This document shows positions 12,362 to 46,148 of a stretch of 64,000 nt of DNA, one piece after another. Origin of the DNA: Trypanosoma brucei. Its lineage: Eukaryota. The position numbers and the translations under genes are program-made. Location: NCBI GenBank assembly GCA_000002445.1, contig CP000066.1:1088001-1152000 (forward strand), written 5' to 3'. Each line of letters begins with the position of its first letter. Position 1 is the stretch's first letter. The notes beneath the pieces were generated by a model. It searched no databases. It was not told the origin of the DNA and saw only the letters and a program-made list of their open reading frames with translations.

Positions 12362-12392
<31 letters not shown>

Positions 12393-15300
12393 AGACAAGA
12401 GTTATGGGCGCAGGATGCGGGGAGATGTGCGCATTTAATGTGACCAATGAAAAAAAAGGAAAATGAAAATGAAAATATAATAATAATAAGAATAATGTTT
12501 TTCCCCCTTTTTTTAAAAAAGAAATGGAGTGTGAAATGAAAAGAATTAGAGCAGACACGGAAGAGAGTGAGGTAATGAAGCAGAGGAGGGAGATGAGTAG
12601 GAATAATAGAAAGGAATGCCGAAGCTGTGGGAAAGAGAGAGGCGAAAGAAACGAAGCGGAAAATAAAAAGAGGGATGTAACATATCCTTATGTAAATTAA
12701 TGGCTACTTCATTACCCTCAACTCTTTCTTCGATCCCTTTCCTCTCTTAACTCGTCACTTTATATTGTATTATTATTATTATTGATTATATTGTATTATC
12801 TTGTTTAATCTCTTGTGTCCCCCGTTCCGTTTTACCTTCCCACGACATTCAAATAAATTTTTCAATCGTTGACTTCTCGTTCCACCTTCTTTTCCTTCAT
12901 TTCATTTCATTTCACTTCATTTTCCTTTCCTTTCCTTTCCTGTTCTCTTTTTCTTTGCTCTTTTTTTCTTGTCTTTCTCTGTTCATTTCTTTTTCTTTTT
13001 ATCACTTGTTCCCCCCCGCGCGCGCTATTTACCTCCGTTTCCTCTCTTATTTTTGTTGTGTATGTTCGGGCTCTCTTTTTTTTTTCTTTTTTTTTTCTCG
13101 TTGTTTCTGTTCGATATTATTTGTTTTTGTTCTGTCGTGTTTTGTTCGGTGTTCTTTTTTTTTTTTTTTAAGTTTTAGTTTTTTGTTGTTGCGTGTGTTT
13201 TACCTTTTCCCCCATCATCTTGTTTTTTTCCCTGTCATTGTCTCTTGGGATCCGTTTTTGTTTCTGTTTCTCTATTGTTACTTTCCCGTTCATAGTGTAC
13301 GCTTTTCTTTCTTTTTCTTTAATGATAATAATAATAATTATTATTATTGTTTTTATTATATTAAATCAAACGATTCTTTTTCCCTCTTTCGTTTTTTTTT
13401 CAAACAAATTCCCAATACGGCAAAAATCCGGAAGAATGAAAGTAAAGGAATTAAAAAACAAAACAAAAAAAAACAAAAAAAAGCAAAGACGGGAGGAGGA
13501 ACGAGAACAAGAATAGACTTTTTTAAAACAAATGAATTGAACTGAAATGAATTCATATATATTCTCATTTTAAAGGAGGAAAACAACAAGGGAAAGAGGA
13601 AAAAAGAAAACTAATATTTATGATATGAAGGGAAATATTTCTCCCGTTTTGTTCGTTTTTCTCATGGGTGCATTCGAGCAAAATAAATGAGACAACTCAA
13701 GACGAAATAAAGTGAAAAAGAGAAGGAAAAAAAAAAAAGAAAAAGAACAACAAAGAAATGAGGGAATGAAGAAAATATCTCTCGGTCTTCCATTAGTTCA
13801 CTCACCACCTCCACTCATATAAAAAATATATATATATAAATAATTAATTAAATATATCAATATAAATTTATACATTTATTATTTTATTATTACTACTAAT
13901 ATTATTACAGTTATTATCATCATCATCATCATCACTATCATCATCATTATTGTTATTATTGTTCTTTTTTTTTCTTTATTGTTTATTGTTTTTAAAATTA
14001 TTATTATTATTATTATTATTGTTATTGTTGTTCATCGTAGTTGTGATGGCGGCAACAAATAATGAGTGGAGGTTGCATGGCCAAACTAAAAGGAAGAGGG
14101 AAACGAGGGGAAACGAGGAAAAGGAAAAAAAAAGAAAAAAGAAAAGAGTGAAATTAAATGAATTAAATGAAATGTATAATATATAATGTATAATCCACCA
14201 ATATTTTGTTTTTTTTGTTTTTGTTTTTGTTTTTTTGCCTTTGGTTTACTTGTGAAAGAAAGGAAAGAAAGACCAAACAAAATGAATTGAAGTAAATGGC
14301 AAAAAAAAAGAAAAAAAAGTAACAAAAGCAAAAGACAAAGGGGGAAAAAACAACAACAACAAAAAGGTGTGAGATTATACAAAATTGTATGTTCCTTTAA
14401 GAATTTGTGTTTGTTTGTGGTTTGTTTATTATTATTATTATTATTATAATTTTCATCGTGACTCATTACCGTTGAAAGTAGTCGTCCATTTTGACAAAGC
14501 GGAGAGGCGAAGGGGGAGTGGTGGTGGTGGTGGTGAAGTGGAGAAGTGGAGAAGTGGAGAGGGGGGGGGGAAAAAACAAAAGAAAAGAAGAAATTTTGTA
14601 TGAGAGAAAATCAAATTTAAAAACAAAAACAAAACAAAAAAAAACAAACAAAATGTATAAATATAAATAAAAGAAAAAGAAAAGAAAAAAAATGACATAT
14701 TGGGGAATTACACCACGTCAAGTGTACGAAAAAAGTGAAATTGAATTGAATTGAATGAGATAAGATGAGATGAGATGAAACGCAAAATGTACACACGTAA
14801 AAAAAGGGGGGGGAGGAAAAAGAAAAGAAAAGAAAATAATAATTCCTTTTTTTTAAAAAAAAAGGAGGAACTGAAGAAATATCGCCATGGGAGGAGAGAC
14901 GGTGACCGCTAAAGTGACCGATATGACACAAATAACAATTAAATAAAATGAGCGAATGAGCGCTTTCGTTTAGCAAAAAAAAAAAAAATAATAATAATGA
15001 TAATAATAATTAAAAGTGACGGGCTTTCGTTATTATTTCCAAGTGGCAGAAAAAAAAAAAGAAAAATAAAGGAAAGTGAAGAATATGTTGTGTGCGTGTG
15101 TTTTCTTTTTCTTTTTTTCTTTTTTTTTTTTCTCTCCTTCTCACAAATTAAAAGAAAAACAAAATAGTAATAAAAGAGAGAGAGAGTGAGTGAGTGAAGA
15201 AAGGAAGAAAGGAAGGAAAAAGAGGTAACAGAAAAAATGAAAAGGAAAAGAATAAAGGAGAATATACCTTTATGCAGAAATAAATAAATAAATAAATAAA

Positions 15301-15870
15301 TGTACACATTCATATACGTTATGGTCACATAAATTTAGAGAAGGATATGAAGAAGGAGGAGGAGGTAAAAAAAGAAAAAAAAATAAAGGAATGCAAAAAA
15401 AATAAAATATATAAATAAATATATATATATATACACAGTTCGAATGAAGATTAACAAGTGAAAAGTTGATGGGATTATGGAATTCCAAAAATAAATAAAA
15501 AAAAAGAGGAAAAATAAAATGGGGGGGAGGGAAGAGAGACCGGGTTACGCAATAATAATAATAATAATAATATTTTTTCCCTCCCTCTTTTCTATTTTCT
15601 TCTTCTTCTTTTTTCTTTTTTTCTTTTTGTGCCTCACACGTGTGTATTTATTTATATATGTGTTTATATTCCGTCTCATATCTTTTTCCCACCATCACTG
15701 CTATGGTTTTGATAGCGGAATTCAGCAGAAGATACAACACCAACACGTTGCATTTACACGGGCACATTTTTTTTTTTTTGCTTCTTCATATATTTTTACT
15801 CACGCGGTTTTTTTGTTGGTATATTTGGTAAAATGCCCCGGTGTTTTTATTGTTTTTTCTTGTTATTGCC

Positions 15871-15906
<36 letters not shown>

Positions 15907-16089
15907 GTGTTCGCTGCTTTTCCCTCCCAAACCGTAACGCCGTGTGTCATGTAAACAAGTGATTTTTGTTGTTTCCTTTTTTTCTTTTTCTTTTCCTTTT
16001 TTATTTTATTTTAATTTGATTAATTCTTCCTTTCTTTCCTATCAAAAACAAAACAAAACAGAAAATAAATAAAAACACATATACACATA

Positions 16090-16092
<3 letters not shown>

Positions 16093-16145
<53 letters not shown>
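16093..16145. repeat. (CA)n microsatellite of about 26 units
   Basis: An uninterrupted acacac... run read directly from the sequence. Confidence 0.95.
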
Positions 16146-16148
<3 letters not shown>

Positions 16149-16404
16149 GAATAAATAATAATAATAATAAAACAACCGTTCATTTGCCACCGTTAGCATA
16201 TTTTACTAACAACAGCATCATTTCAATAATATTAATATCAATAATAATAATAATAATAACGGTAGTAATGGTAACTATTATATTATCAATATTATTATTA
16301 CGTTATTATTGTTATGTTTATTTATTTATTTTGAATTGTTTTTGATATTATTATTATTATTGATATTATTGTTGTTGTTGTTCTTATGTTAATGAGATAT
16401 GAGG

Positions 16405-16410
<6 letters not shown>

Positions 16411-16455
<45 letters not shown>
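16411..16455. repeat. (TA)n microsatellite of about 22 units
   Basis: An uninterrupted tatata... run read directly from the sequence. Confidence 0.95.
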
Positions 16456-16458
<3 letters not shown>

Positions 16459-19400
16459 TACATTTATTATTATTATTATTATTATTTTAAAGAGCGTGGC
16501 ACCGAAGTGCTGAATAAAAGTGAAAATGAAAATGAAACGAAATTTTATGTTATGTTATGTTGTGTTGTGTTGTGTTATGTTTTTATTTTATTTTTGAATG
16601 GAGATGGGAAAGAAACACATAAGGCACTGAAAATGGAATGCATCGTTCATCGTTTTTTTTTTGTTTTCTAGAAACAACCCCGGAGAAACCCGAAGGGGAA
16701 ATACAAAAAAAAAAGGAAAGGGAATATAATATGTATATTTTTATATTTATAGCAATGGGATGATGAAAGGTGGAGGGAAGAATATGCGAGGATACGTATG
16801 GAGTTTTATGTTGTATTAATAATTTCAGCAAAAAAAAAAAGGAGGAGGAGGAAAGGAAGAACAGGAAAATAAAAAGGAAAAATAAAAAAAAAAGATAAAA
16901 TAAAAGCAAAAAAAAAAACTTGAAATATGTGTGGACGTGATAACATAATCACGCCTTTCCCCTGTTCTTTGCTTTTAATTTTTATTTTTGTTAGCGTTGT
17001 TTTTCTTGTCATTTGCTACGAAAGACCTGAGATAAATGCGTATCTGTTTTGTTGTTTTTTTTTCTTTTGTTAATAATCTCTTTATTATGTTATATTATAT
17101 TATATATTGTACTCAAATTAAATTAAATTAAATTTTTGTACTGTATTGTCTTGTCTTTTCTTGTCGTAACGCTGCCAGTAGTCGCAGCAGCAGTTTTGGT
17201 CTCGAGGGAAGAGATGGATTGAAATGAATTTTAGAAAAAAAAAACAATAGGAAATAATAATAATAATAATTATTATTATTATTATTGTTGTTATTGTTAT
17301 TGTTATTGGTAAAACCGAAATAATTGTAAAGCAACGAGGAGGGGATGGTAATGAAAGTGGTGAAAAGGTACGAGTGGTGCATGGAACTCTTTTCTTTCTT
17401 TTTTTTAGAAAAAAAAGAAAGAAAAGAGAATGACATGAAGAATTTTTATGCCCGTTATACTTTAGATGTAAAGGAATAACAACAGAAACAAAAACAAACG
17501 ATAATAATAATATTAATAACAACAATATCATCATCATCAAGGAAGTCGCTTAACAAAAAAAAAAAGAAAATGTACACAAAGGTGCAAAAATGCACAAACT
17601 TATAAATATATAAATATAAATATAAATATGTATGAATACATGTTTGTATTTTGTATTTTGTATATATTTATATATACGTAAATTTCTTTAAGTGTTACGA
17701 TTGCTATGTTGAAGTGAAGCGATTCATTTGACGGAGCGGTACCCGGTAATCGCACGAATTTTATTTATGCCATTTCCTTACCGGACTGTCCTCTTTTTTT
17801 TTTTTTCTTTCACTTCCTCTTCATATTGTTCCTTTTCTGATTTATTGTTTTTGTTTTATTTACTTATTTTTATTTCCTCCCCTCTTAGGCATATTTCCCC
17901 CACCTTCCTTCCCTCCGTGGTTTCATTTGCTATCGGCAGTACCGATCTGTGTTCTTTTTTTTTTTAAAATAAAAGAAAAAGGAAAACAAAAAAAAACTTT
18001 TGGCTTTGATATTTCCCCCGATTATTATTGTTATTATTGTTATTATTGTTATTATTATTATTGTTATTGTTATTATTGTTTTTGTTATCGTTTGTTTTCA
18101 TTGCTGTGTTTTCATCGTGTAACCGCATCTTTTTTTTTTGTTATTTGTTTTTCTTTCCTTTTGTGTACGCTTATATTTGTACAAATATATTTGCATATGT
18201 ATCTGCGTGAATGCGTGGTTTGTGTTTTGTTTTTGTTTTATTTTATTTTCCTGCTTCTCACTTGCACGTCAGTTTCAACATCAACAACATCAACATCAAC
18301 ATCAACAACAAAAAGAAAAAGAAAAAAGAAAAAGAAAAAGAAAAAGAAAGCAGCTCTGCCCACATTCCCTCACCCGTTTCCTGTTTTTTTCACTTACACT
18401 TTTTGTTTTTGTTTTTGTTTCCATTTTGCTCTGCTCGACTCTTTTTTGTTTTTTTTTTGTTTTCAAGTTTGTTTCCACCGCGTGACTTTCTTTTTCCATC
18501 CCAGTGTGTTATGATTAGGATTATGACAGCTATAGTTACTACAATTATAATTATAATTACAATTGCAATTTATTGTTATTATGATTGTGGTTGTTGTTAT
18601 TTGCCCCCTTTTCATTGTTCGTCTGTGTCATTCTTCCACGCCCCTCTGCCTTTTTTTCTTTTCCTTTTTTTCTTTTCTTTTCTTTTTTTTCTTTTCCCAT
18701 TTTGTTTGTTCGTTTGTTGTTTTGAATTTATTCATTCATTCATTCGTTTTCTCTTTGCCTTTTATTTTTACTTTTAATTGAATGAAAGGCTTTTCACTTA
18801 TGTGTGTTGCCACCTGCGGGAATTTTTTTCACACACCTCATCTCTTTTTTTTTTCTCTCTCTCTCTCTCTTTCTCTTTCTCTTTCTCTTCTTTTTCTTCT
18901 TTTGCCACTTTTCCCTTCTTTCTTCAGCTGAGTCAAACAATCCGTAATATATATAAATAAATATATAAAAATATAAATATATATATATATATCTTTTCCC
19001 TGTTGTTTTTTTTTCTTCTTCTTTTACTGATATTACTCACATATGTATTCTTTTACTTGAGCCCTCATTCCATTTATCTTTTTTCCTTCTTATTCTTCTT
19101 TGTTCTTTTTCTTTTTTTCATATTTCACTTTATTCGAATAACTTTTGCTCGTGTAAATGATAAAAATAAAATAGAAAGAACAAAGAAGAAGAAAGGGAGA
19201 CAGCCATACAAAGAGGTGGGAAATAGGAAAAGGTAGAAGAAAATAATAAAAAAAAAAGAGAGAGTGAGAGTAAGAGTGAGAAATAGTGCGCGTGTTTGTG
19301 TGAAAGTTGTTCGCATTAGTGTTTTTGACGACACGTGAGCGGACGGTGCTTTTTTTGTTTGTTTGTTTGTTTTGTTTTGTTTTCAGTACTTAACCAACGG

Positions 19401-19570
19401 AAAGAGAAAAGGGAGAGAGAGAGAGAAAAAAAAAGAAAGAAAAAAATATATAAATATACACATAAATATATAAATAGTAGCAAAGGTTGAAAAGAAAACA
19501 ATAGCACCGTATCGAAGTCAAAAGGAAGTGAGTGAGTGAGTGAGTGCGTAAGAGGAAGGAGGAGAATAAA

Positions 19571-31193: not shown

Positions 31194-32510
31194 ATGACTC
31201 CTGTATTTGGTACCGCTGCTTTCTTTTGTAGGTTGCGGTCCTCGTCTCTGCGACGATTTTGCCTCAATCATCAACGCAGGGCTCGCAGTAGCGGCAGTTC
31301 AATTGGTATTGCTCATGAAGTTACTTCACTTCACCCATATGGTTGCAGCAACAATGTTGTTGGTTCTACACGGGTTTGGAATGAAACGGAGAATTGGTGC
31401 AGTCTTTGCTTGGAGCCACTTAACAGTTGGAGCGAGCACCGCGGGAAGCGCGATCACATTTGTTTGGAGATGTTTTATAATGCGATAACTCAATACGGGC
31501 GCCGCTGGTCACCATCGACATTATGGTGGGAAGTGGAGGAATGCACTTTGCTGCGTCGCCATGCTTCTCCGCGACTTGTGTTGGATGGTGGCGAGGGTTT
31601 TTTTAGTGGTTGTATTTTGGATTATGTACGCGACTCAACTGGAAAGAGGGGAGGTCTTAGTCTTTTGATGGATTATTACGATCGAATGGAGCATTACAAG
31701 CGGCGTTTGGAGCTCTACGCTTGCATTCAACATTTGATTGACAATGGTATCGTGCGCACCGATCGGGGTTCGCTGGGCGGCGGCGCGTCATTCCACGGTT
31801 CTCTCGTGACATTCAAGGAATTATTTCCAAATTTAGTAAATATGTTTCCATTTGCGGACGCAAAGGAGATCTCCGCCTTAACACAAATGATAGCCTCGAC
31901 GTATAACGGTGAAACGGTATTCGACTTGTGTAACTTCCAGGGGTTGCTTCCAGCGGGTCAAGGAGGAGGCGATACAACAGGAGGAAAAGGCAATACTTCA
32001 GGATGCGGAAACTCGCAGCAGCGACTGGCATTCAACGCCGAACAAAAGGGAAGTGAAGATTCGTCCGTTACCGCATCTGCTGAGGGGGTTTATTCATATC
32101 ATTGGAAAGGAATGTTTTGTCGCGGCGTGATGGGTCAATTACGATGGGCATTGGAGTGTGATAGCGTTGCCTGCCCACTGAAACGTGCCGATGGCTCCAA
32201 GCACGTTTGCGACCCCTATTGGCAAGTTCTTTCGGAATACACCTGTCGGGCCCTCCTTGCGGAAATGGTTTTTTGTCGTGTTTCGGAGTATATCGTGCGC
32301 GTTGAGGGTGTTTGGAGAAAATGTGGTCAGGAATTGGCGAACAAACATGTGTCGCATGGGAGTCAAAAGGAAGAAGAGGAGAGGGCGCATCCGCCGCGCA
32401 CGTCGAATTGGGGTTACATACGATACATGGGGGATCATTTGTATGATGACATGTTTGGGGGAAACTTGCCAAATGAAGGGGCTCCGAAGAGATTGTCTTT
32501 GATGAGGTGA
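31194..32510 (+). CDS. hypothetical protein with possible U1/matrin-type C2H2 zinc finger
   Basis: The 438-aa ORF has an Arg-rich N-terminus. 'CSLCLEPLNSWSEHRGKRDHIC' fits the C-x2-C-x9-H-x5-H pattern of matrin/U1-like zinc fingers. I recognise nothing else in it. Confidence 0.5.
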   Translation: MTPVFGTAAFFCRLRSSSLRRFCLNHQRRARSSGSSIGIAHEVTSLHPYGCSNNVVGSTRVWNETENWCSLCLEPLNSWSEHRGKRDHICLEMFYNAITQYGRRWSPSTLWWEVEECTLLRRHASPRLVLDGGEGFFSGCILDYVRDSTGKRGGLSLLMDYYDRMEHYKRRLELYACIQHLIDNGIVRTDRGSLGGGASFHGSLVTFKELFPNLVNMFPFADAKEISALTQMIASTYNGETVFDLCNFQGLLPAGQGGGDTTGGKGNTSGCGNSQQRLAFNAEQKGSEDSSVTASAEGVYSYHWKGMFCRGVMGQLRWALECDSVACPLKRADGSKHVCDPYWQVLSEYTCRALLAEMVFCRVSEYIVRVEGVWRKCGQELANKHVSHGSQKEEEERAHPPRTSNWGYIRYMGDHLYDDMFGGNLPNEGAPKRLSLMR

Positions 32511-33109: not shown

Positions 33110-33589
33110 ATGATAAGATATCTTTTGCTTATAAGTCGCCAAGGCAAAGTACGGTTGGCGAAGTGGTACGTTTCCATACCGAACAAAGAAAAAACTCGAA
33201 TTGTTCGTGAACTTTGCCAAACCGCTTTGGGTCGTTCCGCCCGTTTCTCCAACGTGTTGGAGCTCCGCGGCTCCAAATATGTTTGCCAGCGGTATGCGTC
33301 TCTTTATTTTATTGCCTGCATTGACAAGCAAGACAATGAATTGGCAATTTTGGAGATGATTCACCACTTCGTAGAGCTATTGGACCGATACTTTGGCAAT
33401 GTTTGCGAGCTGGACCTTATCTTCAACTTCCACCGGGCATATTTTGTGCTTGACGAAGTTATTTTGGGAGGGGAATTGGAAGACACAAGTAAGAAATCAA
33501 TATTACGGCAGATTGAAATGCACGAGGCGGCAGCGGAGGACACGGAATTATCCAGAGGATCCGGCACAAATTCCTCAAAGGCACGCTAA
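33110..33589 (+). CDS. adaptor-protein complex sigma (small) subunit, AP-1 sigma-like
   Basis: The track ORF starts at 33026, and the conserved start is 'MIRYLLLISRQGKVRLAKWY' at 33110. 'YASLYFIACIDKQDNELAILEMIHHFVELLDRYFGNVCELDLIFNFHRAYFVLDE' is almost identical to AP-1 sigma consensus blocks. Confidence 0.85.
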   Translation: MIRYLLLISRQGKVRLAKWYVSIPNKEKTRIVRELCQTALGRSARFSNVLELRGSKYVCQRYASLYFIACIDKQDNELAILEMIHHFVELLDRYFGNVCELDLIFNFHRAYFVLDEVILGGELEDTSKKSILRQIEMHEAAAEDTELSRGSGTNSSKAR

Positions 33590-36500
33590 AACTCCCCTTC
33601 TTTTCCCTTCCCTTCCCTTTCCTTCCCTATCCAAAGGCGGCTAACAAAAAGAAAAAAAAAGAAGAGCATGAGGAGGAGGAGGAGGAGGAGGAGGAGGGAA
33701 AACAAAAACAAAAACAAACACAAACACACACACAAGGAGGGTTCGAAATGAAGCGTGTCGCCTCCATTTTTTTTTCTTTTTCCCACCACCACTCTCGCCT
33801 CTGTAGTTGCTGCAGCTTTCTCTTCCCTTCTTTCATCTGTTGTTTTTTCCACCATTTTCTTTCTGTGTGTTTTGCTTCTCTTACAGAAATTAAACTTTTA
33901 TTCCTATTTGTATTGCCTTTTCTTTCTTGTGGAAACGTTCCGTTCACCATCAGAAGTTACTCTTGTTCCTCGCAAAGGTCGCAAAGGATTAACGTGATTA
34001 TTATTATTATCTTTAAAAGGAAGAAAGAGGGAAATAAAGAGAAGGAGAGTCAAATTTCATAGGCAACATCGCGTTAAATATGGACTAACGCGGCGATTAA
34101 GTGGTCAAAAGTTACTCGACCAACAAAGTCAATGGTATCGCCGGTAGCGTCAAAAATAAAAAGTGCATCTCACCGGATCATCCCTCAATAGCGCACCAAA
34201 CAGTCCTCCACGTGAGAGCGGAAGCAAAAGGCAGAAAAGGTGCATGAACAAATGCGGAATAAGCCCCGCGCCCTAATAGCAACAGAAATAGTAAAAATGG
34301 TATCGTCGCCGCCCAAGAAAAAAATTAAATTGTAACTCCCCCCATTCAAAACCGAAAATACGAGAAGATCATAAATAAAACAGCATTCTCACTTTGGCAG
34401 TATCGGCTTTCAAAAGATTCCACAGCTATTCACACAAAAAAAATAAATAAAATTTACACAACCCGTTTTCAAGAATAAAAAACACAGATCTATATAAAAT
34501 CCATCAAAAGCGAAAAAAAAAATAATGAACAAAGAGTAAGGGAAATGCTATACTATCAGCCGCCGCGTCTTTTCCCATAAAAAGAAATCGAGACATAAGT
34601 CTCGCCCCCGTCGCTCTTTAAAAGACCCCTCCCCTTTTTTTCCGTGTGGCCCAGGGCGGTGGGGAAACGGAAGGGTGTGTGTTTGTATGCTTTTGGGGCC
34701 GCCTGATTTGTCAGGGTGGCCCAGGGCGGTGGGGAAACGGAAGGGTGTGTGTTTGTATGCTTTTGGGGCCGCCTGATTTGTCAGGGTGGCCCAGGGCGGT
34801 GGGGAAACGGAAGGGTGTGTGTTTGTCTGCTTTTGGGGCCGCCTGATTTGTCAGGGTGGCCCAGGGCGGTGGGGAAATGGAAGGGTGTGTGTTTGTATGC
34901 TTTTGGGGCCGCCTGATTTGTCAGGGTGGCCCAGGGCGGTGGGGAAATGGAAGGGTGTGTGTTTGTATGCTTTTGGGGCCGCCTGATTTGTCAGGGTGGC
35001 CCAGGGCGGTGGGGAAACGGAAGGGTGTGTGTTTGTATGCTTTTGGGGCCGCCTGATTTGTCAGGGTGGCCCAGGGCGGTGGGGAAACGGAAGGGTGTGT
35101 GTTTGTATGCTTTTGGGGCCGCCTGATTTGTCAGGGTGGCCCAGGGCGGTGGGGAAATGGAAGGGTGTGTGTTTGTATGCTTTTGGGGCCGCCTGATTTG
35201 TCAGGGTGGCCCAGGGCGGTGGGGAAACGGAAAGGTGTGTGTTTGTATGCTTTTGGGGCAGCCTGATTTGTCAGGGTGGCCCAGGGCGGCGGGGAAACGG
35301 AAGGGTGTGTGTTTGTATGCTTTTGGGGCCGCCTGATTTGTCAGGGTGGCCCAGGGCGGTGGGGAAACGGAAGGGTGTGTGTTTGTATGCTTTTGGGGCA
35401 GCCTGATTTGTCAGGGTGGCCCAGGGCGGTGGGGAAACGGAAGGGTGTGTGTTTGTATGCTTTTGGGGCCGCCTGATTTGTCAGGGTGGCCCAGGGCGGT
35501 GGGGAAATGGGCGGGGGGTTGTGAAGTCTTTTATGTGGGCGGTGTTTGGTGCTGGGCGAATTCGGATGTGATTGTTATGCGTTGCTTGTGTTCCTGCGTA
35601 ACCTTATTTTCCCCCTTTTTTTGAGGTGAGAGAAAAGGTTCGGAAAGGGCGAAACATGGAAGGGAAACGGGACTGCCTGGTGTCGGTTGAGCAGTTTTTC
35701 CGGCGAGTTCACTGCTCACACGCGTTTTGTGGGACAGAAAATCCGACAGCTGCCCGGAGGCAAGTGAATCGGGCGCTTGTGTGGATGGCAGGCGGGGATC
35801 GGGCGTCCGGTAAGGACGGTGATGCCGGGAAGCGCGGTCGTTAGGGCCAACGGTCGTGGCGGCGCGGTGGGGGGCGCTTGATCCTTAACTTTGGAAGGTG
35901 CGTCTCCCTTTTTTTTTTGAAGTAAACTTTGGAAGTTATTTTAACCAGGTGGACGGTGGTTGCGCTACTGTTTTAGTTTTTTTTTCTTTATGCTTTTTAG
36001 AATGCTCTTTGCGGCGGGGCGATTGAAAGTCGCCTCGGCTTGGGGGTGCGCTTTTTTTTTTATTATCATTATGCAGGCGGGAAAGCGTTGAGCTTTTCGG
36101 GGGGACGGGCTTCCGCCAAAAGCTCTTGTGGGTGGAGGTGCAGTTTTATAAGGGGCGGCAGCGACAAAGCTGTTTCTAATGCTCCCTCTTTTTTTTTTGC
36201 ATTTCGGTGGCCCTGAGGGTTAGTTCCTCAAAGAAATCCGCTGCAGCAGCTTAATTCATTCGAGCGTCATCGGAGGGACACGGGGGACTTGTATGAGGGA
36301 CGACGGGTTCGGCAAGTGGAGAGTGGCGCCGTCGCACCCTTTTTTCGAAGTCAAGAAGGTGTGCAGAGAAAACCTTTTGAATGGTTTTGGCACCGTTTTG
36401 TTTCTTTTTAGAGGAGAAAGGGGAAACACGGCCCACTTTGACGTGTGGTGTGGCTCTGGGAGAACTCTAACCGCTTATTTTCAATGAAAGCCTTTCCCTG

Positions 36501-39209
36501 CTCCGAGTTCCGGCGCGAAAGAGAAGCACGCGTTGGGGTTTGGGAAAGGGGGGTGCAGCAGAGAAGGCTTGGGGAGCATCCTTTCAAAACGTCCCTGCAA
36601 TCCTTCTTGCCCACCGAAATAAAAAATTTCTTCATGACCTTTCCCTAATCCATGTTTTTTTCAGAAAAAATTCATGTATTTTTTTCTTCTTAGAACTTTG
36701 CTTAAATCAGGAGTGCCTTAAATAAAGTAAGGCGCTAACACTTTCGCCGGATTTATTAAAGGGTGTTCCTACCTCAGTTCCCCCAGCTTTGAAACTTTCG
36801 ACTTTCACCAACCCATGCCCCACAAGGGTCGTCAAGTTAGTGATGTAGCGGTTCGAGATGCGCCCCGCCAAGTCGGTGTAAGAAAGGCCTGTGACCGGTT
36901 TGCCAACAACACGAAAGGCGCTAGCGTCAGGCCCGGTTGTTGCCGCCTCTGTTCGTGCTTGAGCCGCCTTGCTTAAGAAATTCGTGGCGGAGACGCTCGG
37001 CTTTTTCTTGTGAAAAGACAAACCCCCTTCCGCGGTGTTGCCCGTTTCGCATCTCCCCGGAACGGCGGAAGTTGCTTGGGGGGGGGGGGGGAGGGCGGGA
37101 TGCCCTGTGCCCGTATTCATCTGCATGCTGCGCTGGTCTTGCGTTCCGTAGTCTTGCCGATTTTGCGTCGGCTTGCTGCTTCCCGCTCCCGTTGGCCGCT
37201 CTGTTCTCTGTTCGACGGACCCCTCACGACCGGTGCTGCAACCTGTTTTTTGGAAGGGCACGTGACGTGCAACGTGCCCGGGACGACACACCCGCATTCG
37301 CCTTATCGGCCGGCGGCCCTTTAGCCGCGCGTGTATGCGGAGGGAGAAGGGGGAGGGGAGGGGATGTGCTCAGAAAGCCGCGGAGGTGCATTGGACGCTG
37401 CCTTTGACCGTGGTGAATTACATTGAGGGGTTCGTGTATTCATCTGGTTTTGGCAGCGCCAGTGGCTATGACAGTCGTTCCTTGGGGCGCATTTTATTGG
37501 GGTCGGGGTGTCAGAGGAATCTTTTCCAATTTGCCGTGCACTTTTCTCACCGCAGGGCATTGCCGCTCCGCTGCACAGGGAAGGTCCCGCTCGATGAGGC
37601 GGGTGGTCTTCTGCCCCCTATAAGAGACGCAAATCGAAGGTCAGCTCAAGTCGAATATTTACTTTCTACGGGCGCCGGGGCAACGGCCTCACCCGTTCTA
37701 AAATGGGGGACTGCAGAACGTTACCGCTCGTTCGGGAAGGGCTGGACGTGGTTGAAGGTCCGAAAACAACGAAAGCTTTGGAAAGTGTAGCGTTTACGCT
37801 GTAGCTTTCGAATATTAAGTAGCCCGCTATGGCGGCAGCCCGTTTTCCCCATAGCTTCAATGAAAGCACGGTAAGATTGGAGCAACCGAGCGGGAATCGG
37901 TGCTCATTAGCCATGGGAAAGTGATGCAAGCTCTCATCGTGATGTGTGGGGCGCCTGCGCGCCAGAGGGCGAAAGCGGGAAAGCGACAGTAGATTACTGC
38001 CCGGAGCGGCGTTTCAAAGTAACCAGTGACGTGGGCTCAATCCGACTGAGACCGGTTAAGGGAGAGCAGTTCCCCCACCGGAACCACTTGCAAACAAGGC
38101 TGCAACGTGAAAGCTGGAAAGGCTGCCGAAATTTTTGACGGTGGTCGTGGATTTGCCTTCCTGCGCACGGCAAAACCGGGGGTGGCGTAGAAAGCATCGA
38201 TCAGTTCGGACGGCGGTAGCATAACGCTAGCGGTGGAAAACGGTTTGGCCAGGGTCTCGGAGACAATGTCCAGCAGGACTCTGAAGGAGGTGAGAAAAGA
38301 CAACTAACGGCGCAGGATGGCCTTGACAACGCCGTTGCATCCGCTGACCGGTAACCGGTGGCCATGAAAAAAAGACGTGGGGCGATGGCGTGCGGACAGC
38401 CGGTGGCAGAAGCTTCCGGTATTTCCCGACGTGGCGGACGATGTGCTTTTGCCCTCCCGCACGTGATTCCGCGCTCCTTTGTGCACGCACCGTCCCCTTC
38501 CGCCACCAACCGAAGCTCACGGCCAATTTTAAACGGGTCGAAATGCGGTTTCGAAGGTCCCACAGCCGCGCGGCTTCGCGCTAACGAAGAACCTCTATAC
38601 GATCCGATGGCGGATTTTCGGGTGCCACAGAAAACGATATCCCACGCGGGGGAGCAACGCCCAGCCGCCCGCGGAAATTCCGAGGGGCGCTGACGCGCGA
38701 CGGGAGCGCCGTTCGGCGAATGGAACGTCTCCGGGTCCCTCTTTACCTGCGGTCCACACTACCTTCAAAATATTTGCGGGCACCTTCCCGACGAGACCTG
38801 TGCAGACAAAGTTGCAGTTCATCCAACCCAGCTTGAAACACAAAGAAACGAAAAGCAAGCATCTACGAAACCCGCGAAGCAGTGACAGCAATAACGGAGC
38901 AACTCACCCGCAGCAATCTAGGCACAGTAGATGAGTTGAGCCATCTCTTTCTTTCTTTTCAGTTACCTTACGGCAGCCCCAGGTGCACGTCCGCAAGGTA
39001 AACGCTAATAGAGGTCAGAACCATGTCGTATCGGTTGCGACGTACTTCTATCCCTTTTTCTTCGTAGTGTACCGGTCTTCCTTCACCCCATTACCTTACC
39101 TTCGCTCCCTTCCTTCAATCCCCTTTGTGGCGCAGAAGCGCCTTGCGCTTGCCGATGCCAGTCCCAGTCCATATTGAATTCGCAACTCCTCTGCAGTGCC
39201 TTTGGACCC
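33590..39209. other. convergent strand-switch region between plus-strand and minus-strand polycistronic units (probable RNA pol II termination zone)
   Basis: All credible genes upstream of this region are on the plus strand and all credible genes downstream are on the minus strand. This 5.6-kb region has no credible long ORF. Intergenic pyrimidine tracts are T-rich on the plus strand before it and A-rich on the plus strand after it. Confidence 0.75.
34640..35510. repeat. tandem array of about 12.5 units of a 70-bp G-rich repeat
   Basis: The unit 'gtcagggtggcccagggcggtggggaaacggaagggtgtgtgtttgtatgcttttggggccgcctgattt' recurs at exactly 70-bp spacing; the ORF-track starts from 34646 to 35346 step by 70. 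Units differ only by rare point variants (aaacgg/aaatgg, tatgc/tctgc, gccgcc/gcagcc). Confidence 0.95.
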
Positions 39210-42200
39210 CTACATTTCAATACCCTCGGCGTAGTTCTGGTAGCGGTCGTAGAGAACCGTTCGAACGTTCTCCCTGGATTCTGCGATCCGCTTCCGCATG
39301 AAGTCTGCTGCCCACGCTTCACTCTTATGCATCGCGAGGCGCCAGGACAGATCGTGAATTGTCTTTTTGGGCTTAAAGCAAGGAAGACCACTGCTGAGCA
39401 TCAGTTCAACAAGCACACAAATCTCGTGGGCGTATTGTCGAACAGCGAGGAAGCAACGAATCGTCAGGTCCACAAATAGATTGTAGCTCTCCAGATCCAC
39501 TAGAGCTTTTGCGAGGGAGGGGCTTGGTTGCTTCCCTTTCCCTTCATTCACCGGGTACCCCATGAGCTGCGCCATTTCCAGGGTTAACTTGAACGGGGAC
39601 GACTCGAAGTTGATGTCGCCTCCCGGTGAAAGGTCAAACAAAAACCCGAAGTCTATGTGCACCAAGTGGCCATAGGAGTCGATAAGAATATTGCCGTTGT
39701 GACGGTCCTTTATGTTGAGGACGAAAGAAGCGGTGGCATATGAGGCCATGCTTCGGATAAAACACTCCCGAGCGCGATGGAATCTTACGGATTCTGGGTA
39801 GCCGTAGGTCTGTACAAAGTACTCCGAGAGGTTACCTTCCACCAGTTTCCCAATCTGATCACGACTCATTGCCCGGGGAACACACTCGATAACACCACAA
39901 TCCCTCCCGGTGGCAACCACCTTGTACGGATAAAGAAAGGATGGTAGCTGGATGGAGTCAAACACACGGCGGAAGAGCCCTATCAGTTGCAATGCAAGTT
40001 GATCCTGCCTGCAATCATCCCCCATCTTGAAAATGCAGAGCTTTGACGTTACCGCTTCTTTATCCGAGCCGGTCGCCTCTCCTTGTGCATTTTCCCCGTC
40101 CCGACTATTCTGCGGAACGCAGTGAAACTCCACCATGATGGGGCACTTTGCCGCGCTCTGCATTGCACCAGCGGTGTCAGGGCGAAGGGCGACGATTCTC
40201 CAGTTGGGATCTGTGGGCAAATATAAGTGCTGTCCACCGATAGAGTCGTGGAATTCCTTATCGCGCAACCGAAGGCGGAGCCTTCCCTTTCGAAGCGGCC
40301 TCTCGATAGGCATCATTTCTCCAGACAAGGAAATAATTCGGTCAATGAAATTGAACTCACCGTCATGGAAAGCTTTCCTTGAGGCATTGAAGGAGTGCCG
40401 GATCTCCGACGCGAGCTGGGAGCACTTCCGTGCGTGCTCGCTATCTCCACCCCCTTCCGCTTGTAGGGACCAAAGGAGCTGGTGCTCAAACGTTTGGCTC
40501 CTTTTGCACATTTTCTTCAAGAAAGACGGCACGGCCCCGATTGGGTCCTCTGAAAGTATCTGAAGTATTTGAGGGAGGTAAAACGTAAGCGAGTCGCACT
40601 TTTTACACAAAAGGCTGCGAAGGGCGTACGCGGAGACCTGCGGGTACCGAGTCGCATACCGCGCGTGCAGATGGCGGAGGGACTGCACAAGACCACCGTT
40701 CCTGAAGAGGTGGAGCGCAGGATACCCGTTGACCAGCGTTACGCTGTTCAAATAGAGATCCACTGCTCCAGGTATATTGCAGTAGAGCTCTGGATTCTCA
40801 GAGACGATTTGCGCAGCCCAACCCACCACATGTCTGTTGGGAAACCGCGCCACCAACGCAACCAGTACTGCGGGGTCGCTTTCTGACGCCGCCGTGCAGT
40901 GCGATAACCATTCGCCACTGGAAATGGCGTCAAAATAGTCGCGGGACGGCGTTGAGAGGGAATCGGAAGGATGGAGCCAAACGAGGAGTCGATGGTGCTC
41001 GTGTTTGACCAGGAGTTGCAGGAGTCGGATGAGGCTCATTAGCCGTTCCCGCTCAGCGGCAATCAGGCTTTCAATGTCCGTGAAAGTTCCACCCGCAATG
41101 TCTTCACCTATCCTGCGCTGCGCGACACTTCCCACAAGCGTCAGGTTGACAAGGGTGGAATCAGCTGACTTTTCTGGTGAGGCAAAGTCCAGAAACCCAT
41201 CGCTAGAACGTGACAATGCTTTCATGTCCCTGTCCAACATTTCCATAAGTTTTCGCAAGGCCGCTAGTTCCTTCTCCGCGGCCGTGCGGTCCCGCGAGAA
41301 GTACCAAGAAGGCGGCGTCTTTTGAAACCAGTGCATCAAACAGCGATAAAAGCCTTGGCGCAGGGCTCCGACGAAGAAGGCGGGGGTTAGGGCCGGCAAA
41401 CCCTCGCGCGCACGGCACTCGTTTGCAGCTTGTAAATTACGGCAAATGAGACCTATCATCAGGACGCAGCGCGTCATTTCCGAGAAGGACGCATCTTTTG
41501 TGGAGAGCCTGGACGGAGTTTTCACAATCCTCAAGGCGAGTTGCTTTAAAAGGTGGAGAACGGGCGGGACAAATGATACTGGCCCGCCCTCATCGACATA
41601 GCACGCAATTAAAAACTCGGCGAGAAGCTTATGTGGAGAGTTCGTGGCATAATCATGTGAGTAAATGGCCGCATCCCTCCTTAACTGTGGTTTCCTGCCT
41701 GACTCCACTTCGTCAAGGCCTCTCGGTCGGGAGCCGTCAAACAGTCCAACACGATGGGTAATTGTCCACACAAATCCCTCTACAACTTCTGCTAGCAGTG
41801 GGGCTGCAAAGAGCCCCGGTCTCTCAAATAAGATCCACCTCCAGCAACTGATGGCCTTGGCCAGGGCGTCGCTTGAAAACGAACGGATGGGGTACTGCAC
41901 GATGCACCGCAGAAGGCTTATATGCATTGATGTACCAAGCCGCGCGCTCGTCAGGAGCACAACCGCGGAGCAAGCTAGTGTGTCACTTTCATGCAGCTTA
42001 TCTGACAAGGTCTGACCACTAGGTGGGGTACATGTGGACGTCCAGGAACCCCGGTGAACCGTGTCCTCCGCTTCCCCACCTTGGCAACCACGACTAAAAT
42101 CATCCACACCTATTTCACCAGACAGAGCGTTCGTCAACGTCACGAACTGCTGCTCCCTTAGTTGTTTACTCAAACCGAAGGTCTTCACAAGGTCCTCTCC

Positions 42201-45200
42201 CGCTTCCTGCAGGTGCTGAAGCAGCAACTGATCAGCACCACCATGGGTTGCTACCCGAAAGAGTGCCCTAACGTGGCCCTTTGCGTTACTCCTCCTTATG
42301 AGGCTTCGCTCACACATCGGCTTCGACGTTGCCGATAAACCCCCAGCGTTGTGTGCACGAAGGGCCAGGCTTAACCCGATGCCGGGCTCGACCGTGCCGT
42401 ACGTCGGCTGTTCAACGATGAAACGCTCGGCATGTTCCCGCAAGGCGATGGGGGAGCCTTGCTCTGCTAGCTGGGCCCAATGCACTGCAAAAGAGACGGC
42501 ATCACTCAACTGTTTTCGTCGTTCCGGGGATTCCGGATCCGCAGCGACGGCGGGGGGCTCCAACATTTGCTTTGATTGGCAGTAAAGCTCCACCTCTGCT
42601 GCACTTCCCTTTTCAAGCACGCCGATGACGTCCCACAGAAGTGGAAGAGCCTGGCAAGTCCCCACAAACGACGGGAAGGCTGATATAATTTTACTTAGTA
42701 TTTCTTTGGCGGAGCGCCTTACTGATTGAACGGCGAAACCATATAATAAGACGAGTTGTGGTACGTCCGCCTCGATCCGTTTCGCGGCCGTGTCGGGAGA
42801 CGTGGCTTTCAACGCTGAGAGATACCGATTTGTTGCAGCAGCCGTTAGGCACGACGTTGCTGCCCGGAAATCTGCACTAGCGTCGAACTCACAAATTTCG
42901 AACCGGTGGTACTGTGCAATAGTTGAGATGAAGCCGCAGGAAGCTCGGAGGATTTCGAGGGTTGCCAGCGCATGAAAAAGAAAAAGTTCAGAAAACGGCA
43001 ATCGGCGCCCCACCGACGATACACCAGGGCAGCAGTCTTCCAGGTATTGCAGCAACCCCTTTCTGTAAGGCTTTATGGCGTGGCTGTCAGTGCTGTAGTT
43101 GCGCAAATGACGTTCCAAAAGTTCAATATCACTCATGACCTGTTGGTAATCGGTGGATCGCATGCGCAAAAGCTGTGGTGATAAAGAGGCAAGGAGGCGC
43201 ACGCACTTCGTTTGGTTCCAAGACAACACGTACTCACCCCCACGGGGTTGCTTAACATCTGATGATCCCTCCGCACCTTTTCCCTCAGCTTGCGTTAGGA
43301 GCATCACCTTGGAAGTAAAGCCATAATACGTAAGCATCAGCCAATAGGAGCGCAGCTGGGCGGCGTCGCTGTCATCATAGAGTGGAAGACTCATGCTATT
43401 AGGCTGAATGCCACTGTGGTGCATGAAAGAGTCTGTACTTTCCAACTGCTTGAACCTCTGCACGTTATCACGGTAACTCTTGAGACACTGTACGTCTTTT
43501 TCAGGCAAAAGTGTGAGAAGCTGGCAGAGCAGACACAACGGTTGCAGGAACAGCGAAAGCGTCGCAAGGGCCACCTCGCTCATATCGGAACGCATATGGT
43601 GACCGTTCTGCGTTTCCTTCCCACCGTCAATGTTAGTGTCGTAAATAATCCCGGAGCCTGGCCACAAACAGTTGATCATGCATCGGAGGACCGAGTGTAG
43701 TAGGAGACGCAGTACCTTTCCCTCGTTGTTGATCGCCTCAACAAGAGGCGATTTGTTCCATTCATCGCCGGCATCGCCCGAAGCATTGTGGGGTAAATCT
43801 CGAAGCGCCTCACGGACCATCGCAAGGACACGATCATGGCAACGCCGAGTAAGGTGCCAAAAAGCGTCCGCCGTGACCTGTAGTTCGTTGCCTGGAAACT
43901 GTTTATTTGTATGCGACAATTCGATACACCGAGTGTGGGCTCGCAGAGTGTCCTCCACCGTATCAAACAGCAGCTGGGTGTACCGACGTAGACTCTCGTA
44001 AGGCAACGGATTGCACAACGAATGGTGCCTCGACAAGAGAACACGGTTCATCATCTCAAAGCACACAGAAAAGCGCAGCGATACGTCGACGGGACCTTGA
44101 TCCAAACGTCCCTCAACGTTACTCCCTGCTTCATCAGCACCGTCCCCCAACTGCTGCAACCCGTCATTTCGCGTTACAGCATCGTTGACCTCTGTGCTGA
44201 CAAGGGCGCGTATGTAAGCATTTGTGGCACACAGTCCCTGCAAGCAGAGCGCGGCGGTTCGGCTTCTCGTCTCCACATTGGATGATGTGGCAATTCCCAG
44301 ATTTCCCGCCCTTAAAATGCAACGAATGAGTTCATGTGTTACTTGTTCAACACCACCGTAAAATTTGTTGGAAAATTGTATTCTCCTCATTTTGGCCCCT
44401 AAGACCGAGAAGGGATGTGTACTTGTCGACAGCGCTCTGCCATCGGTGGATGCGACGAACGCCAGAACTTTTGCACTGTGCTCCGCAATATCTTGGTGAA
44501 GCGACACCACCGGCCCAGCCGTACCAATCGCGGCGAAAGCACTCTTGGGTAGGAGAAGAAACTTAACGATGTTGCCAATCACCCCGAGGCGAAGGGCGTC
44601 TTCCTCCATGGAGGGCACATACCCCGCATCACCTGAGCCGTTACCACGCTCGTGTTGTTGTCCGCTGTGCGCGTTGTGTTGGCAAGTGCTGTTGACTATG
44701 GCGTAGCACCGAATACGCTCCAGCTCCGCTTGGAGCAAGCTCACCACTACAGCACGCAGGCTGGTCCCATACAATACAAAACTACGATTTTGAACCTTGC
44801 CCCATTTGTCCTCAGAATCCTGAAGAACCGCCCAGACGCCTTCAATGAGCGTTTCGGCTTCGACAACCTCCCTTCGGTCAACAAAATTAGATATTGAACA
44901 GCAGGAAGTAGTTCCCCCATCCCCATTTCCCCCACTACGTGCTGCACTGTCGCCCGGACAGGAAATTGACATCGCAGTTTCCTTCAGCCACCCCATTAGA
45001 AGCCTCAGCGTAGCTGCCACTAATCGCGCCTGGATGCCCTCCCTTCGCTGGAGGCCCCTGAGTATATATTCCGGCCGTAACAGCGTTAGACACCAATAGC
45101 GCAATTTGGTATAGCAGACACCATGAACCGATGATAGTGCTTCCACAAGGTAACACAAAAGCTCCTTGTATGGAGGATCCCTTCGATGTGAGGATGTAAC

Positions 45201-46148
45201 GAGCGTATCCGTTAGGTTGTGCAGGTGCTCTATGAGCTCCGTGCCGAGATCCACGTTGCCGGCTTCTCCAGCGATGGCGATTCCCTCAAGCGCACCGAGT
45301 GCAATGGAGTTGTCTACGCACTCGTCTGCATTTGAGGGAATGCATTGAACGAGGAGTGGATCGACGACATGCGCCCCAAAACCCACTAAACCTTCCCTAC
45401 TCAACTCGACACTACCATCACCAACATCCTTGCCAGCATAAGTAGACGTGGGACAACCCGCCTTCTCCCTTTCCAACCCTCCGCTGCCACTGCTTGCATG
45501 CCGAAGGTGGATGCCACATGCAACAAGTGAAGAGACAAACCCCCGAATGTCAACCCCCAATGAAAAAGTTGTTGCGTTGAGCTGTTGCATAAGTGAGGTG
45601 TACAAAGAAACGCACTCCAGATAGAACGATTTTGTGCGATCAAATGGGAGTGAGCGGCACTCGACCGCTAGAGCCACAAGCGCGATTAGCACTGGAGCAT
45701 TCTTCCCAGAAATACGACCCTGTCCCGCAATCAAATCCTTCGCTTGTGACATCTCGAATAGCTGCGTTACTCGTGGGTGAAGCAACATGTAACCACTGTT
45801 GACAACCGAGAGGGCATGTGTGGTTGGCATGGCACCACCGTGCAGATGCTGGGGCATACTTACACTTGACAAAGAGGCCAACCATGGGTCTGTACGACTT
45901 CTCCCGAACAGCACATCCGCACCCGAATAGCCCTCTTGCATGCACGGGCCCAACAATTCCTCCCTCCCGGAGACGGCGAGCGGCGCGTCGCCCCACCTCG
46001 GACCTCCGCTACCGAGCGCAAGCGCCTGTGGCGAATTATCCGTTGCGGGGGTGTCTAGCGGTTGTCGACGCAGTTGGTAGCCAAGCACACGAGCAAAGGC
46101 GAATGCAGGAGAGTGGCTGACCCATGAGGGGAACCTGATGTCGTCCAT
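39210..46148 (-). CDS. PI4KA: phosphatidylinositol 4-kinase III alpha (Stt4/PI4KA-like), 2312 aa
   Basis: The very large helical N-terminal region ends in a PI3K/PI4K catalytic domain with '[21 protein letters not shown]', '[24 protein letters not shown]' (catalytic DRHxxN and DFG). The size and architecture are typical of PI4KIII-alpha. Confidence 0.9.
   Translation of the reverse strand: [2312 protein letters not shown]

Follow-up and report, generated by a model that had tools for sequence, protein, structure and literature searches.

Between the last genes of two converging gene clusters on chromosome 3 of Trypanosoma brucei TREU927 lies a G-rich 70-bp tandem repeat array, which, judged from its sequence and variation, is rather likely to be a T. 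brucei-group-specific minisatellite (VNTR) that resides as a passenger in a transcription termination gap and whose side effects would be at most redundant. The array is real, yet it is an ordinary, fast-evolving minisatellite. It was analyzed within a stretch of 64,000 nucleotides, here called the window, to which all positions refer (Table 1). A preliminary description of this window had assigned the DNA to the kinetoplastids, which agrees with its identity as T. brucei TREU927 chromosome 3. Tandem Repeats Finder detected a single array at 34646-35507 (period 70, 12.3 copies, 98% matches, no indels, score 1668), and the extent of 34640-35510 with about 12.5 units given before thus needs hardly any correction. 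A 30-nt core of the unit has 13 in-register matches, all of them within the array, at an expectation of 0 from shuffles. The repeat had been called near-perfect, and with 98% identity between the units (mean pairwise identity among the TREU927 units 98.3%) this was confirmed. The G-run pattern GGG-tggccca-GGG-cggt-GGGG-aaacggaa-GGG was found as described, whereby the first GGG straddles the junction between two units, and the (GT)n-like tract is present as well (TGTGTGTGTTTGT), whereas a fifth G-run, GGGG at unit positions 50-53, had been overlooked. All units carry the cluster GGG-N7-GGG-N4-GGGG. The + strand of the array consists of 44.4% G over 862 nt and 15% C (GC skew +0.47, G+C 60%), and its G content exceeds that of every other 800-bp stretch of the window. 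An assembly artefact was ruled out, as three independent assemblies place the array identically; the contig of a fourth assembly, made from short reads, ends 1.75 units inside the array.

Table 1. Features in and around the array, in positions of the window.
Feature	Position	Strand	Remark
AP-complex sigma subunit gene, Tb927.3.4000 (by position)	33110..33589	+	Pfam PF01217 (Clat_adaptor_s); final gene of the + cluster
Convergent strand-switch gap, 5.6 kb	33590..39209	.	From ORF strands; lies between the last convincing genes of both clusters
70-bp tandem array	34646..35507	+	12 full units and a 22-bp partial unit; G/T-rich strand is +
3' array boundary, last partial unit into a degenerate G-run cluster, GGGCGGGGGG...GTGGGCGG	35486..35528	+	G4Hunter 2.4
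G-skewed flank downstream of the array	35508..38300	+	GC skew from +0.36 to about 0, then +0.1 to +0.2
Non-repetitive G-run cluster	36527-36562	+	G4Hunter 2.0
Tb927.3.4010, annotated 196-aa hypothetical ORF	36707..37297	-	Only annotated ORF inside the gap
Non-repetitive G-run cluster	37061-37109	+	G4Hunter 2.96
Non-repetitive G-run cluster	37331-37377	+	G4Hunter 2.64
Non-repetitive G-run cluster	37482-37510	+	G4Hunter 1.84
Phosphatidylinositol 4-kinase alpha (PI4K-alpha), Tb927.3.4020	39210..46148	-	Exact match XP_843994.1; last convincing gene of the - cluster

The minisatellite character of the array emerges from the comparison of strains. At the same position, TREU927 has 12.3 copies, T. 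b. equiperdum IVM-t1 has 5.4, and T. b. gambiense DAL972 has 34.5+2 (about 36), whereby these numbers may include assembly errors and may be inexact where they come from Sanger-era assemblies. A strain-variable unit number had been predicted, and about 5, 12, and 36 units in three subspecies are in line with this. The collinear flanks are 98.3% identical to both T. b. gambiense and T. b. equiperdum, which equals the conservation of the DNA further out (98.3%). Between strains, the units share only 92.2-93.0% identity (TREU927 versus gambiense 92.2%), compared to 98.3% within TREU927, and strain-fixed variants occur at unit positions 8, 23, 28, 31, 56, and 66, so that the recent homogenisation proposed earlier holds. 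Since the units (92-93%) have diverged between strains well beyond their flanks (98.3%), the data point to a copy-number-variable minisatellite evolving in concert. The array thereby combines head-to-tail 70-bp units, lineage-variable copy number, and concerted evolution, as is characteristic of a minisatellite/VNTR. It resembles the classical GC-rich hypervariable minisatellites (human subtelomeric/intergenic) in its unit length within the range of 10-100 bp, its head-to-tail arrangement, the strong G/C strand asymmetry, its non-coding nature, the lineage-variable copy number, and in unit variants that are interspersed and homogenised within the array, but differs from them in that it is located in a kinetoplastid convergent transcription-termination gap and that its variation is known from three assemblies. 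The repeat had been suggested to be perhaps undescribed. The 70-mer sequence was not found in print in the full-text-searchable literature, the literature on the flanking gene IDs yielded nothing relevant to the array, and no paper naming the locus turned up in a search for minisatellite markers. However, arrays of similar size were tabulated genome-wide in 2012, with data not shown (PMC3447711).

The genomic surroundings were deduced from the strands of the ORFs. ORFs of at least 150 aa are located on the + strand through 33589 and on the - strand from 39210 on, and the flanking genes are housekeeping genes of the chromosome core (KREPB6, AP-sigma, PI4K), whereby the AP-sigma protein is identical in T. 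b. gambiense and T. b. equiperdum. Tb927.3.4010 is probably a spurious ORF, as its frame is broken in both other subspecies despite 98% identical DNA (tblastn: two frames) and its protein cluster has one member, from TREU927 only. Two gene clusters thus converge on a region in which the sole annotated ORF is frameshifted in the sister subspecies, as expected of a convergent strand-switch region. The array had been placed exactly where the two units converge; the convergent region as such stands, but the exact point does not, since 1,057 bp lie between the AP-sigma stop codon and the start of the array, and 3,703 bp between its end and the PI4K stop codon; the array hence lies within the gap and not at a defined point of convergence. 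No tRNA and no Rfam family was found in the gap. That the GC-rich flank holds a degraded retroelement or a pseudogene was rejected, as the three - strand frames of 36.7-39.25 kb, to which this search refers, contain no Pfam domain. In T. brucei, convergent regions are generally enriched in H3.V, H4.V, and base J and give rise to dual-strand siRNAs (PMC4721609, PMC3447711). A convergent chromosome 3 region with siRNAs at about 1.12-1.136 Mb appears in both of these studies and is probably the present locus; the array site would then probably correspond to the siRNA locus CTU7 on chromosome 3.

The sequence was also compared with what is expected of a gene or of a known satellite. That the array represents small RNA genes (e.g., snoRNA-like) or a repeat that codes for protein, or that it copies a known satellite (VSG 70-bp, 50-bp, 177-bp, or centromeric), is extremely improbable. 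The unit holds a small hairpin (CCTGA-tttg-TCAGG), which would suit a small RNA, but there is no Rfam family at gathering thresholds and no tRNA, and the folding of either strand is no better than that of shuffles (z-scores -0.51 and -0.72), so that a structured RNA was rejected. With regard to a protein, 70 is not a multiple of 3, all ORFs of the repeat start with GTG, and no protein homologue was found; the 'MAQGGGETEG' ORFs had already been taken as artefacts of the repeat, and rightly so. The unit length of 70 bp matches the VSG repeat in name, and this nominal length is the only likeness to it. The VSG 70-bp, 50-bp, 177-bp, and centromeric repeats are A+T-rich and located elsewhere, whereas the array has 60% G+C and is flanked by housekeeping genes of the chromosome core, with no VSG gene downstream of it. 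The array also differs from the VSG 70-bp repeats, compared here by their general description, in that it does not have their A+T-rich triplet-repeat character.

The G-runs had led to the proposal that each unit is a G-quadruplex candidate, which stands in a relaxed form only. A canonical motif (G3+, loops 1-7 nt) is absent from all repeating units because the third loop comprises 8 nt; in and beside the array it occurs solely at the 3' boundary, with matches starting at 35484 and 35494. When loops of 1-12 nt are allowed, 10 of the 12 units contain the motif, and the 860 bp of the array hold 10-11 such motifs; the units without the four-run motif are unit 9, where one run reads AGG, and the first unit, which is not preceded by a junction. 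G4Hunter scores (25-nt window) peak at 1.60-1.68 in 11 units, as fits an extended motif, and just exceed the usual cut-off of 1.5. In 28 of 34 gambiense units and in three of five equiperdum units, AGG takes the place of the third G-run, and this variant abolishes the compact four-run motif in most units of both subspecies, whereby a single equiperdum unit passes a G4Hunter score of 1.5. One of the six major polymorphic unit positions lies in a G-run, which is about chance level, and the quadruplex motif thus appears free of constraint. Furthermore, the G-run clusters of the downstream flank are stronger than those of the array, with G4Hunter scores of 2.0-2.96 for most of them, and are conserved in the other subspecies (98.3% identity). 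Altogether, the gap contains 14 of the 21 quadruplex motifs (loops 1-12 nt) on the + strand of the window. A G4-seq data set mapped to TREU927 exists (GSE110582; PMC6486626, PMC13179062).

These features bear on a possible function of the array as a direction-specific element of termination or chromatin nucleation, which we regard as rather unlikely. In such a case, transcription from the AP-sigma side would expose a G-rich non-template strand, and R-loops and G-quadruplexes would stall Pol II and/or recruit JBP2, leading to base J and H3.V, whereby the copy number would tune read-through and the production of dual-strand siRNAs. The position of the array would suit this, as the array follows the last + gene at a distance of 1.06 kb and has its G-rich strand as the non-template strand when that cluster is transcribed; the probable identity of the site with CTU7 would suit it as well. 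So would the sequence composition, from which a QmRLFS-type R-loop architecture is predicted; this type calls for a G-cluster initiation zone and then an elongation zone of 100 nt or more in which the non-template strand has 40% G or more, and the array has a G-cluster per unit and 44% G overall. Tandem repeats with a G-clustered non-template strand are a classical architecture for co-transcriptional R-loops and quadruplexes. The array shares this organization of G-rich, clustered tandem repeats with mammalian immunoglobulin switch regions and with G-rich terminator pause elements. However, the resemblance to switch regions is an architectural one, and in genome-wide DRIP-seq metaplots R-loops are only slightly enriched at the convergent regions of T. 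brucei (PMC6294496). The density of 10-11 relaxed motifs in 860 bp compares to 3,231 across the whole 35.8-Mb genome (PMC6486626). On the other hand, most gambiense and equiperdum units no longer have the compact four-run motif, the copies range from 5 to 36, and stronger, conserved, non-repetitive G clusters follow 1-2 kb beyond the array, so that the array is not needed for the quadruplex potential of the gap.

The closest precedent for a role in termination comes from Leishmania, where base J is inserted de novo at convergent regions beside G-rich, quadruplex-capable sequences (Genest et al., 2015; PMC4344527). These base J entry sequences likewise lie in a convergent kinetoplastid termination region and have runs of three to four G on one strand; they support a termination element and count against a mere passenger. 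A further point against a passenger is that tandem repeats are known to be targeted by base J in T. brucei (van Leeuwen, 2000, as cited in PMC4344527). However, the Leishmania sequences are not tandem arrays, the T. brucei array is known here from its sequence, and in T. brucei loss of H3.V or base J does not result in read-through at convergent cluster ends (PMC4721609), which for base J sets it apart from Leishmania. For the array being a passenger, we also count that T. brucei tandem repeats besides CIR147 yielded no small RNAs (PMC3447711).

Other trypanosomes provide evidence in both directions. Beyond the T. brucei group, the array is not conserved. By blastn, no similarity could be detected between the whole 5.6-kb gap and its counterpart in five other trypanosomes. 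The convergent arrangement is conserved in T. melophagium, in which the gap measures 1.9 kb, and in T. rangeli, and in the orthologous gap of neither species is there a tandem repeat, which speaks against a termination element. In T. vivax, a different GC-rich tandem repeat, with a unit of 120 bp, is located in the orthologous gap about 630 bp past the AP-sigma stop codon; homology between the 70-mer and this 120-mer was rejected, as they have only the heptamer GTGGCCC in common and blastn found nothing. The gaps of T. melophagium and T. vivax, though not similar in sequence, also have a patch on the AP-sigma sense strand that is G-skewed and prone to form quadruplexes. These recurrent G-rich patches, together with the T. 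vivax repeat, hint at selection for composition or repetitiveness at the site; they favor a termination element and count against a passenger. In a further-reaching version, which we consider improbable, the array and the G-run clusters over the next 3 kb would form a cis-acting, orientation-dependent brake on Pol II coming out of the AP-sigma cluster, in which co-transcriptional quadruplexes or R-loops on the G-rich non-template strand nucleate base J and H3.V and the 5 to 36 units of the T. brucei subspecies tune read-through and siRNA output, and the T. vivax repeat would result from convergent selection. A search with the PI4K C-terminus returned mostly short, distant proteins, whereby T. 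congolense was represented by a 3.4-kb contig only, so that the gap of this species is unassembled. A protein search with the repeat ORF gave no candidates, which has no bearing on the dispersal of the repeat since GTG-start ORFs go uncalled, and exact-pattern scans of bacterial/archaeal and metagenome collections gave 0 hits, which has no bearing on dispersal in T. brucei as these collections are without trypanosome genomes.

It might also be that the array acts mainly on DNA metabolism, as a replication-fork barrier, an origin-associated quadruplex element, or a recombination hotspot, which is quite improbable. Mapped T. brucei origins are enriched in nearby quadruplexes (PMC13179062) and sit at strand-switch regions (background in PMC6294496), and the rapid change in copy number together with the homogenisation demonstrates frequent recombination or slippage of the array itself. 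However, any minisatellite is expected to be unstable, with no implied effect on its flanks, and here the flanks are conserved like the DNA further out (98.3%).

For a passenger minisatellite, the variation pattern suggests the following course. The array would most likely have originated from duplication of a local G/T-rich segment, and would grow, shrink, and homogenise via replication slippage and unequal sister-chromatid or allelic exchange. It would have no sequence-specific function, and its neutrality is likewise suggested by the pattern of variation. We propose that the lack of coding constraint in the gap allows it to persist. If Pol II from the AP-sigma side transcribes the array, RNA and non-template strand would be the G-rich strand, which would favor R-loops as well as long-loop G-quadruplexes of moderate stability. 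Such structures may help to slow the polymerase and to mark the site with base J/H3.V, but the other G-run clusters of the gap would make this contribution redundant.

Even as a passenger, the array would be of use for the typing of T. brucei subspecies, as a single-locus marker with high polymorphism, and it represents a known break-point for short-read assemblies. To our knowledge, only chromatin marks (base J, H3.V, H4.V) and no DNA element are known for the termination of polycistronic transcription in trypanosomes. If the array does contribute to termination, it would provide a rare sequence-defined handle on how trypanosome polycistronic transcription ends.

The repeat array consists of 12 complete 70-bp units and a 22-bp partial unit, as counted in the raw sequence. 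Tandem Repeats Finder, applied to the 64-kb window, reported it as the only outstanding array, with a period of 70, 12.3 copies, 98% matches, no indels, and a score of 1668. Searching with a 30-nt core of the unit gave 13 matches in the window, against an expected number of zero, and every one of them is in register and inside the array. Since these results agree, the coordinates, unit length, and copy number of the preliminary description are correct, and its observation of the array is sound. The unit consensus, GTGGCCCAGGGCGGTGGGGAAACGGAAGGGTGTGTGTTTGTATGCTTTTGGGGCCGCCTGATTTGTCAGG, comprises 31 G, 19 T, 11 C, and 9 A. Overall, the array contains 44% G at a GC skew of +0.47 and is the richest in G among all 800-bp stretches of the window. 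Neither of its strands shows significant Watson-Crick structure.

Coordinates of the array and of associated features (window positions unless a contig is named)
Feature	Position	Strand	Remark
KREPB6	31194-32510	+	exact protein match
AP-complex sigma subunit	33110-33589	+	protein comparison
70-bp array	34646-35507		
Hypothetical Tb927.3.4010	36707-37297	-	exact protein match
PI4K-alpha, Tb927.3.4020	39210-46148	-	exact protein match
Array-to-PI4K interval	35508-39209		47-62% G+C
G-rich candidate	35491-35528		non-repetitive
G-rich candidate	36527-36562		non-repetitive
G-rich candidate	37061-37109		non-repetitive
G-rich candidate	37331-37377		non-repetitive
G-rich cluster	37482-37510	+	non-repetitive
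Gene-poor interval	11500-19500		27-31% G+C
(TTA)~50	13876-14026		microsatellite in gene-poor interval
(AC)35	16075-16145		microsatellite in gene-poor interval
(AT)23	16410-16455		microsatellite in gene-poor interval
T. vivax 120-bp repeat	L005 13260-13608		at least 2.5 copies
T. cruzi AP-sigma gene array	L007 12220-19878		at least 4 copies
T. b. gambiense array	L002 11545-14178		includes 66-bp units with a TGTA deletion

By exact protein matches, the window belongs to chromosome 3 of T. brucei brucei TREU927. Left of the gap that holds the array, every substantial ORF is encoded on the + strand, and right of the gap every one is on the - strand, so that the array is located in a convergent strand-switch region, as had been proposed. 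Its start lies 1,057 bp past the stop codon of AP-sigma, and its end 3,703 bp beyond that of PI4K. Neither tRNAs nor Rfam families were found in the window. The only gene annotated within the gap, Tb927.3.4010, is annotated in TREU927 only; in both T. b. gambiense and T. b. equiperdum, its ORF is frameshifted despite 98% DNA identity. Thus, it is probably not a real gene but a spurious call, which results in a gap length of 5.6 kb. The 3.7-kb stretch that separates the array from the stop codon of PI4K resembles coding DNA in its G+C content, yet contains no conserved ORF, and between 36.7 and 39.25 kb none of the three - strand frames has a Pfam domain. It could represent a very long PI4K 3' UTR or else decayed coding sequence. 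Elsewhere in the window, an AT-rich interval of 8 kb without a convincing ORF is dense in microsatellites and unusually long for a gene-poor interval within a polycistronic cluster.

For a comparison among members of the T. brucei group, we used the orthologous locus of T. b. equiperdum IVM-t1, T. b. gambiense DAL972, and T. equiperdum OVI. The array is present at the matching position with 5.4 copies in IVM-t1 and with 34.5 copies plus two interrupted distal copies in DAL972; the short-read contig of OVI stops inside the array after 1.75 units (window position 34769). Right of the array, the unique sequence is collinear, with 98.3% identity. When 52 units were aligned, positions 8, 23, 28, 31, 56, and 66 of the unit proved to vary in a strain-specific manner, and the mean pairwise unit identity amounts to 98.3% within TREU927 and 94.5% within gambiense, compared to 92.2% between the two. 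By these identities, the array diverges at about four times the rate of its flanks and yet stays internally homogeneous. Combined with the variation in copy number, this is the hallmark of a minisatellite under concerted evolution. In the gambiense array, 66-bp units without TGTA (6, 11, 12, 16, 18, and 28) and units with a 'GT-GGCC' variant (12, 16, and 26) are scattered among standard units, and a stretch of about 150 bp without a match to the unit lies between the main array and the distal 1.5 units. Past unequal exchanges or a higher-order structure may have left this pattern.

In other trypanosomes, the region was reached through KREPB6 orthologues. AP-sigma and PI4K are still convergent in T. 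melophagium, where the 1.9-kb gap contains no tandem repeat, and T. rangeli likewise has a convergent gap after AP-sigma in which no repeat was found. In T. vivax, the corresponding gap harbors an unrelated GC-rich repeat of 120 bp (95% identical copies), which lies about 630 bp downstream of AP-sigma. Its C-rich strand is the sense strand of AP-sigma, a polarity opposite to that of the T. brucei array, and the 468-kb contig terminates within the repeat, about 1 kb after AP-sigma. The T. congolense contigs end on both sides before reaching any repeat. In T. cruzi, one assembly has the AP-sigma gene itself arranged in tandem in units of about 2 kb, with two alternating variants of 97-99% identity, up to the end of a 544-kb contig. 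Blastn of the T. brucei gap against these five species yielded no similarity. By this comparison, the convergent arrangement is old and the 70-mer young. Contigs L003, L004, L005, L006, and L009, from four species or strains, break about 0.4-2.2 kb from the genes flanking the gap.

The suggestion that each unit is a quadruplex candidate holds in a relaxed sense only. One loop of 8 nt keeps every unit from matching the canonical motif (loops of 1-7 nt), whereas 10 of the 12 units match when loops of 1-12 nt are allowed, and 11 units peak at G4Hunter values of 1.60-1.68 (25-nt window), slightly above the usual threshold of 1.5. With only 3,231 motifs with 1-12-nt loops in the whole T. brucei genome (PMC6486626), 10-11 motifs in 860 bp are dense. 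However, the closing G-run of the compact motif (unit positions 28-30) is not conserved: 28 of the 34 gambiense units and 3 of the 5 equiperdum units have AGG there, and only one equiperdum unit passes 1.5. Conservation extends to three close G-runs and to a fourth at a distance of 15 or 30 nt. Among the candidates of the gap, the strongest are the non-repetitive ones outside the array, which reach G4Hunter values of 2.0-2.96 and are conserved among subspecies. Of the 21 such motifs on the + strand of the window, 14 lie in the gap, as do both of those in T. melophagium, and G-rich patches lie on the corresponding strand in T. vivax. Since this enrichment occurs in every species that could be examined, G-richness belongs to the whole gap, of which the array is one amplified instance. 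The cluster at 37482-37510 scores 1.84, above every array unit, and is kept in the sister subspecies; two of the four rightmost clusters, which are all on the + strand, overlap the dubious Tb927.3.4010 ORF.

In T. brucei, convergent regions bear H3.V, H4.V, and base J and are zones of overlapping transcription giving DCL2-dependent siRNAs (PMC3447711, PMC4721609). A convergent region on chromosome 3, CTU7, is listed in both papers at about 1.12-1.136 Mb; its 4,568 reads drop to 2% in dcl2-/-. CTU7 is probably our locus, because it is the sole convergent region listed right of 670 kb on chromosome 3; extrapolation from gene numbers places the gap at about 1.0 Mb, the centromeric region not yet being allowed for. 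When all tandem arrays with units >10 bp and >10 copies were inspected in 2012, small RNAs came from CIR147 only (PMC3447711). If transcribed from the AP-sigma side, the array fits the sequence architecture of R-loop formation, but the little DRIP-seq enrichment of T. brucei convergent regions (PMC6294496) counts against an R-loop role. The array could also contribute to the braking of polymerase or to the nucleation of base J. In the convergent regions of Leishmania, base J is inserted de novo beside G-rich, quadruplex-capable sequences, and base J targets in T. brucei include tandem repeats (PMC4344527). Loss of H3.V or base J causes no read-through at convergent cluster ends of T. brucei (PMC4721609). 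A contribution of the array to braking or nucleation is rather unlikely and would be redundant with the adjoining G clusters. The array seems rather likely to be a lineage-specific, hypervariable, G-rich minisatellite tolerated in a non-coding termination gap, whereby its moderate and unconserved quadruplex and R-loop propensity would be a by-product of composition.
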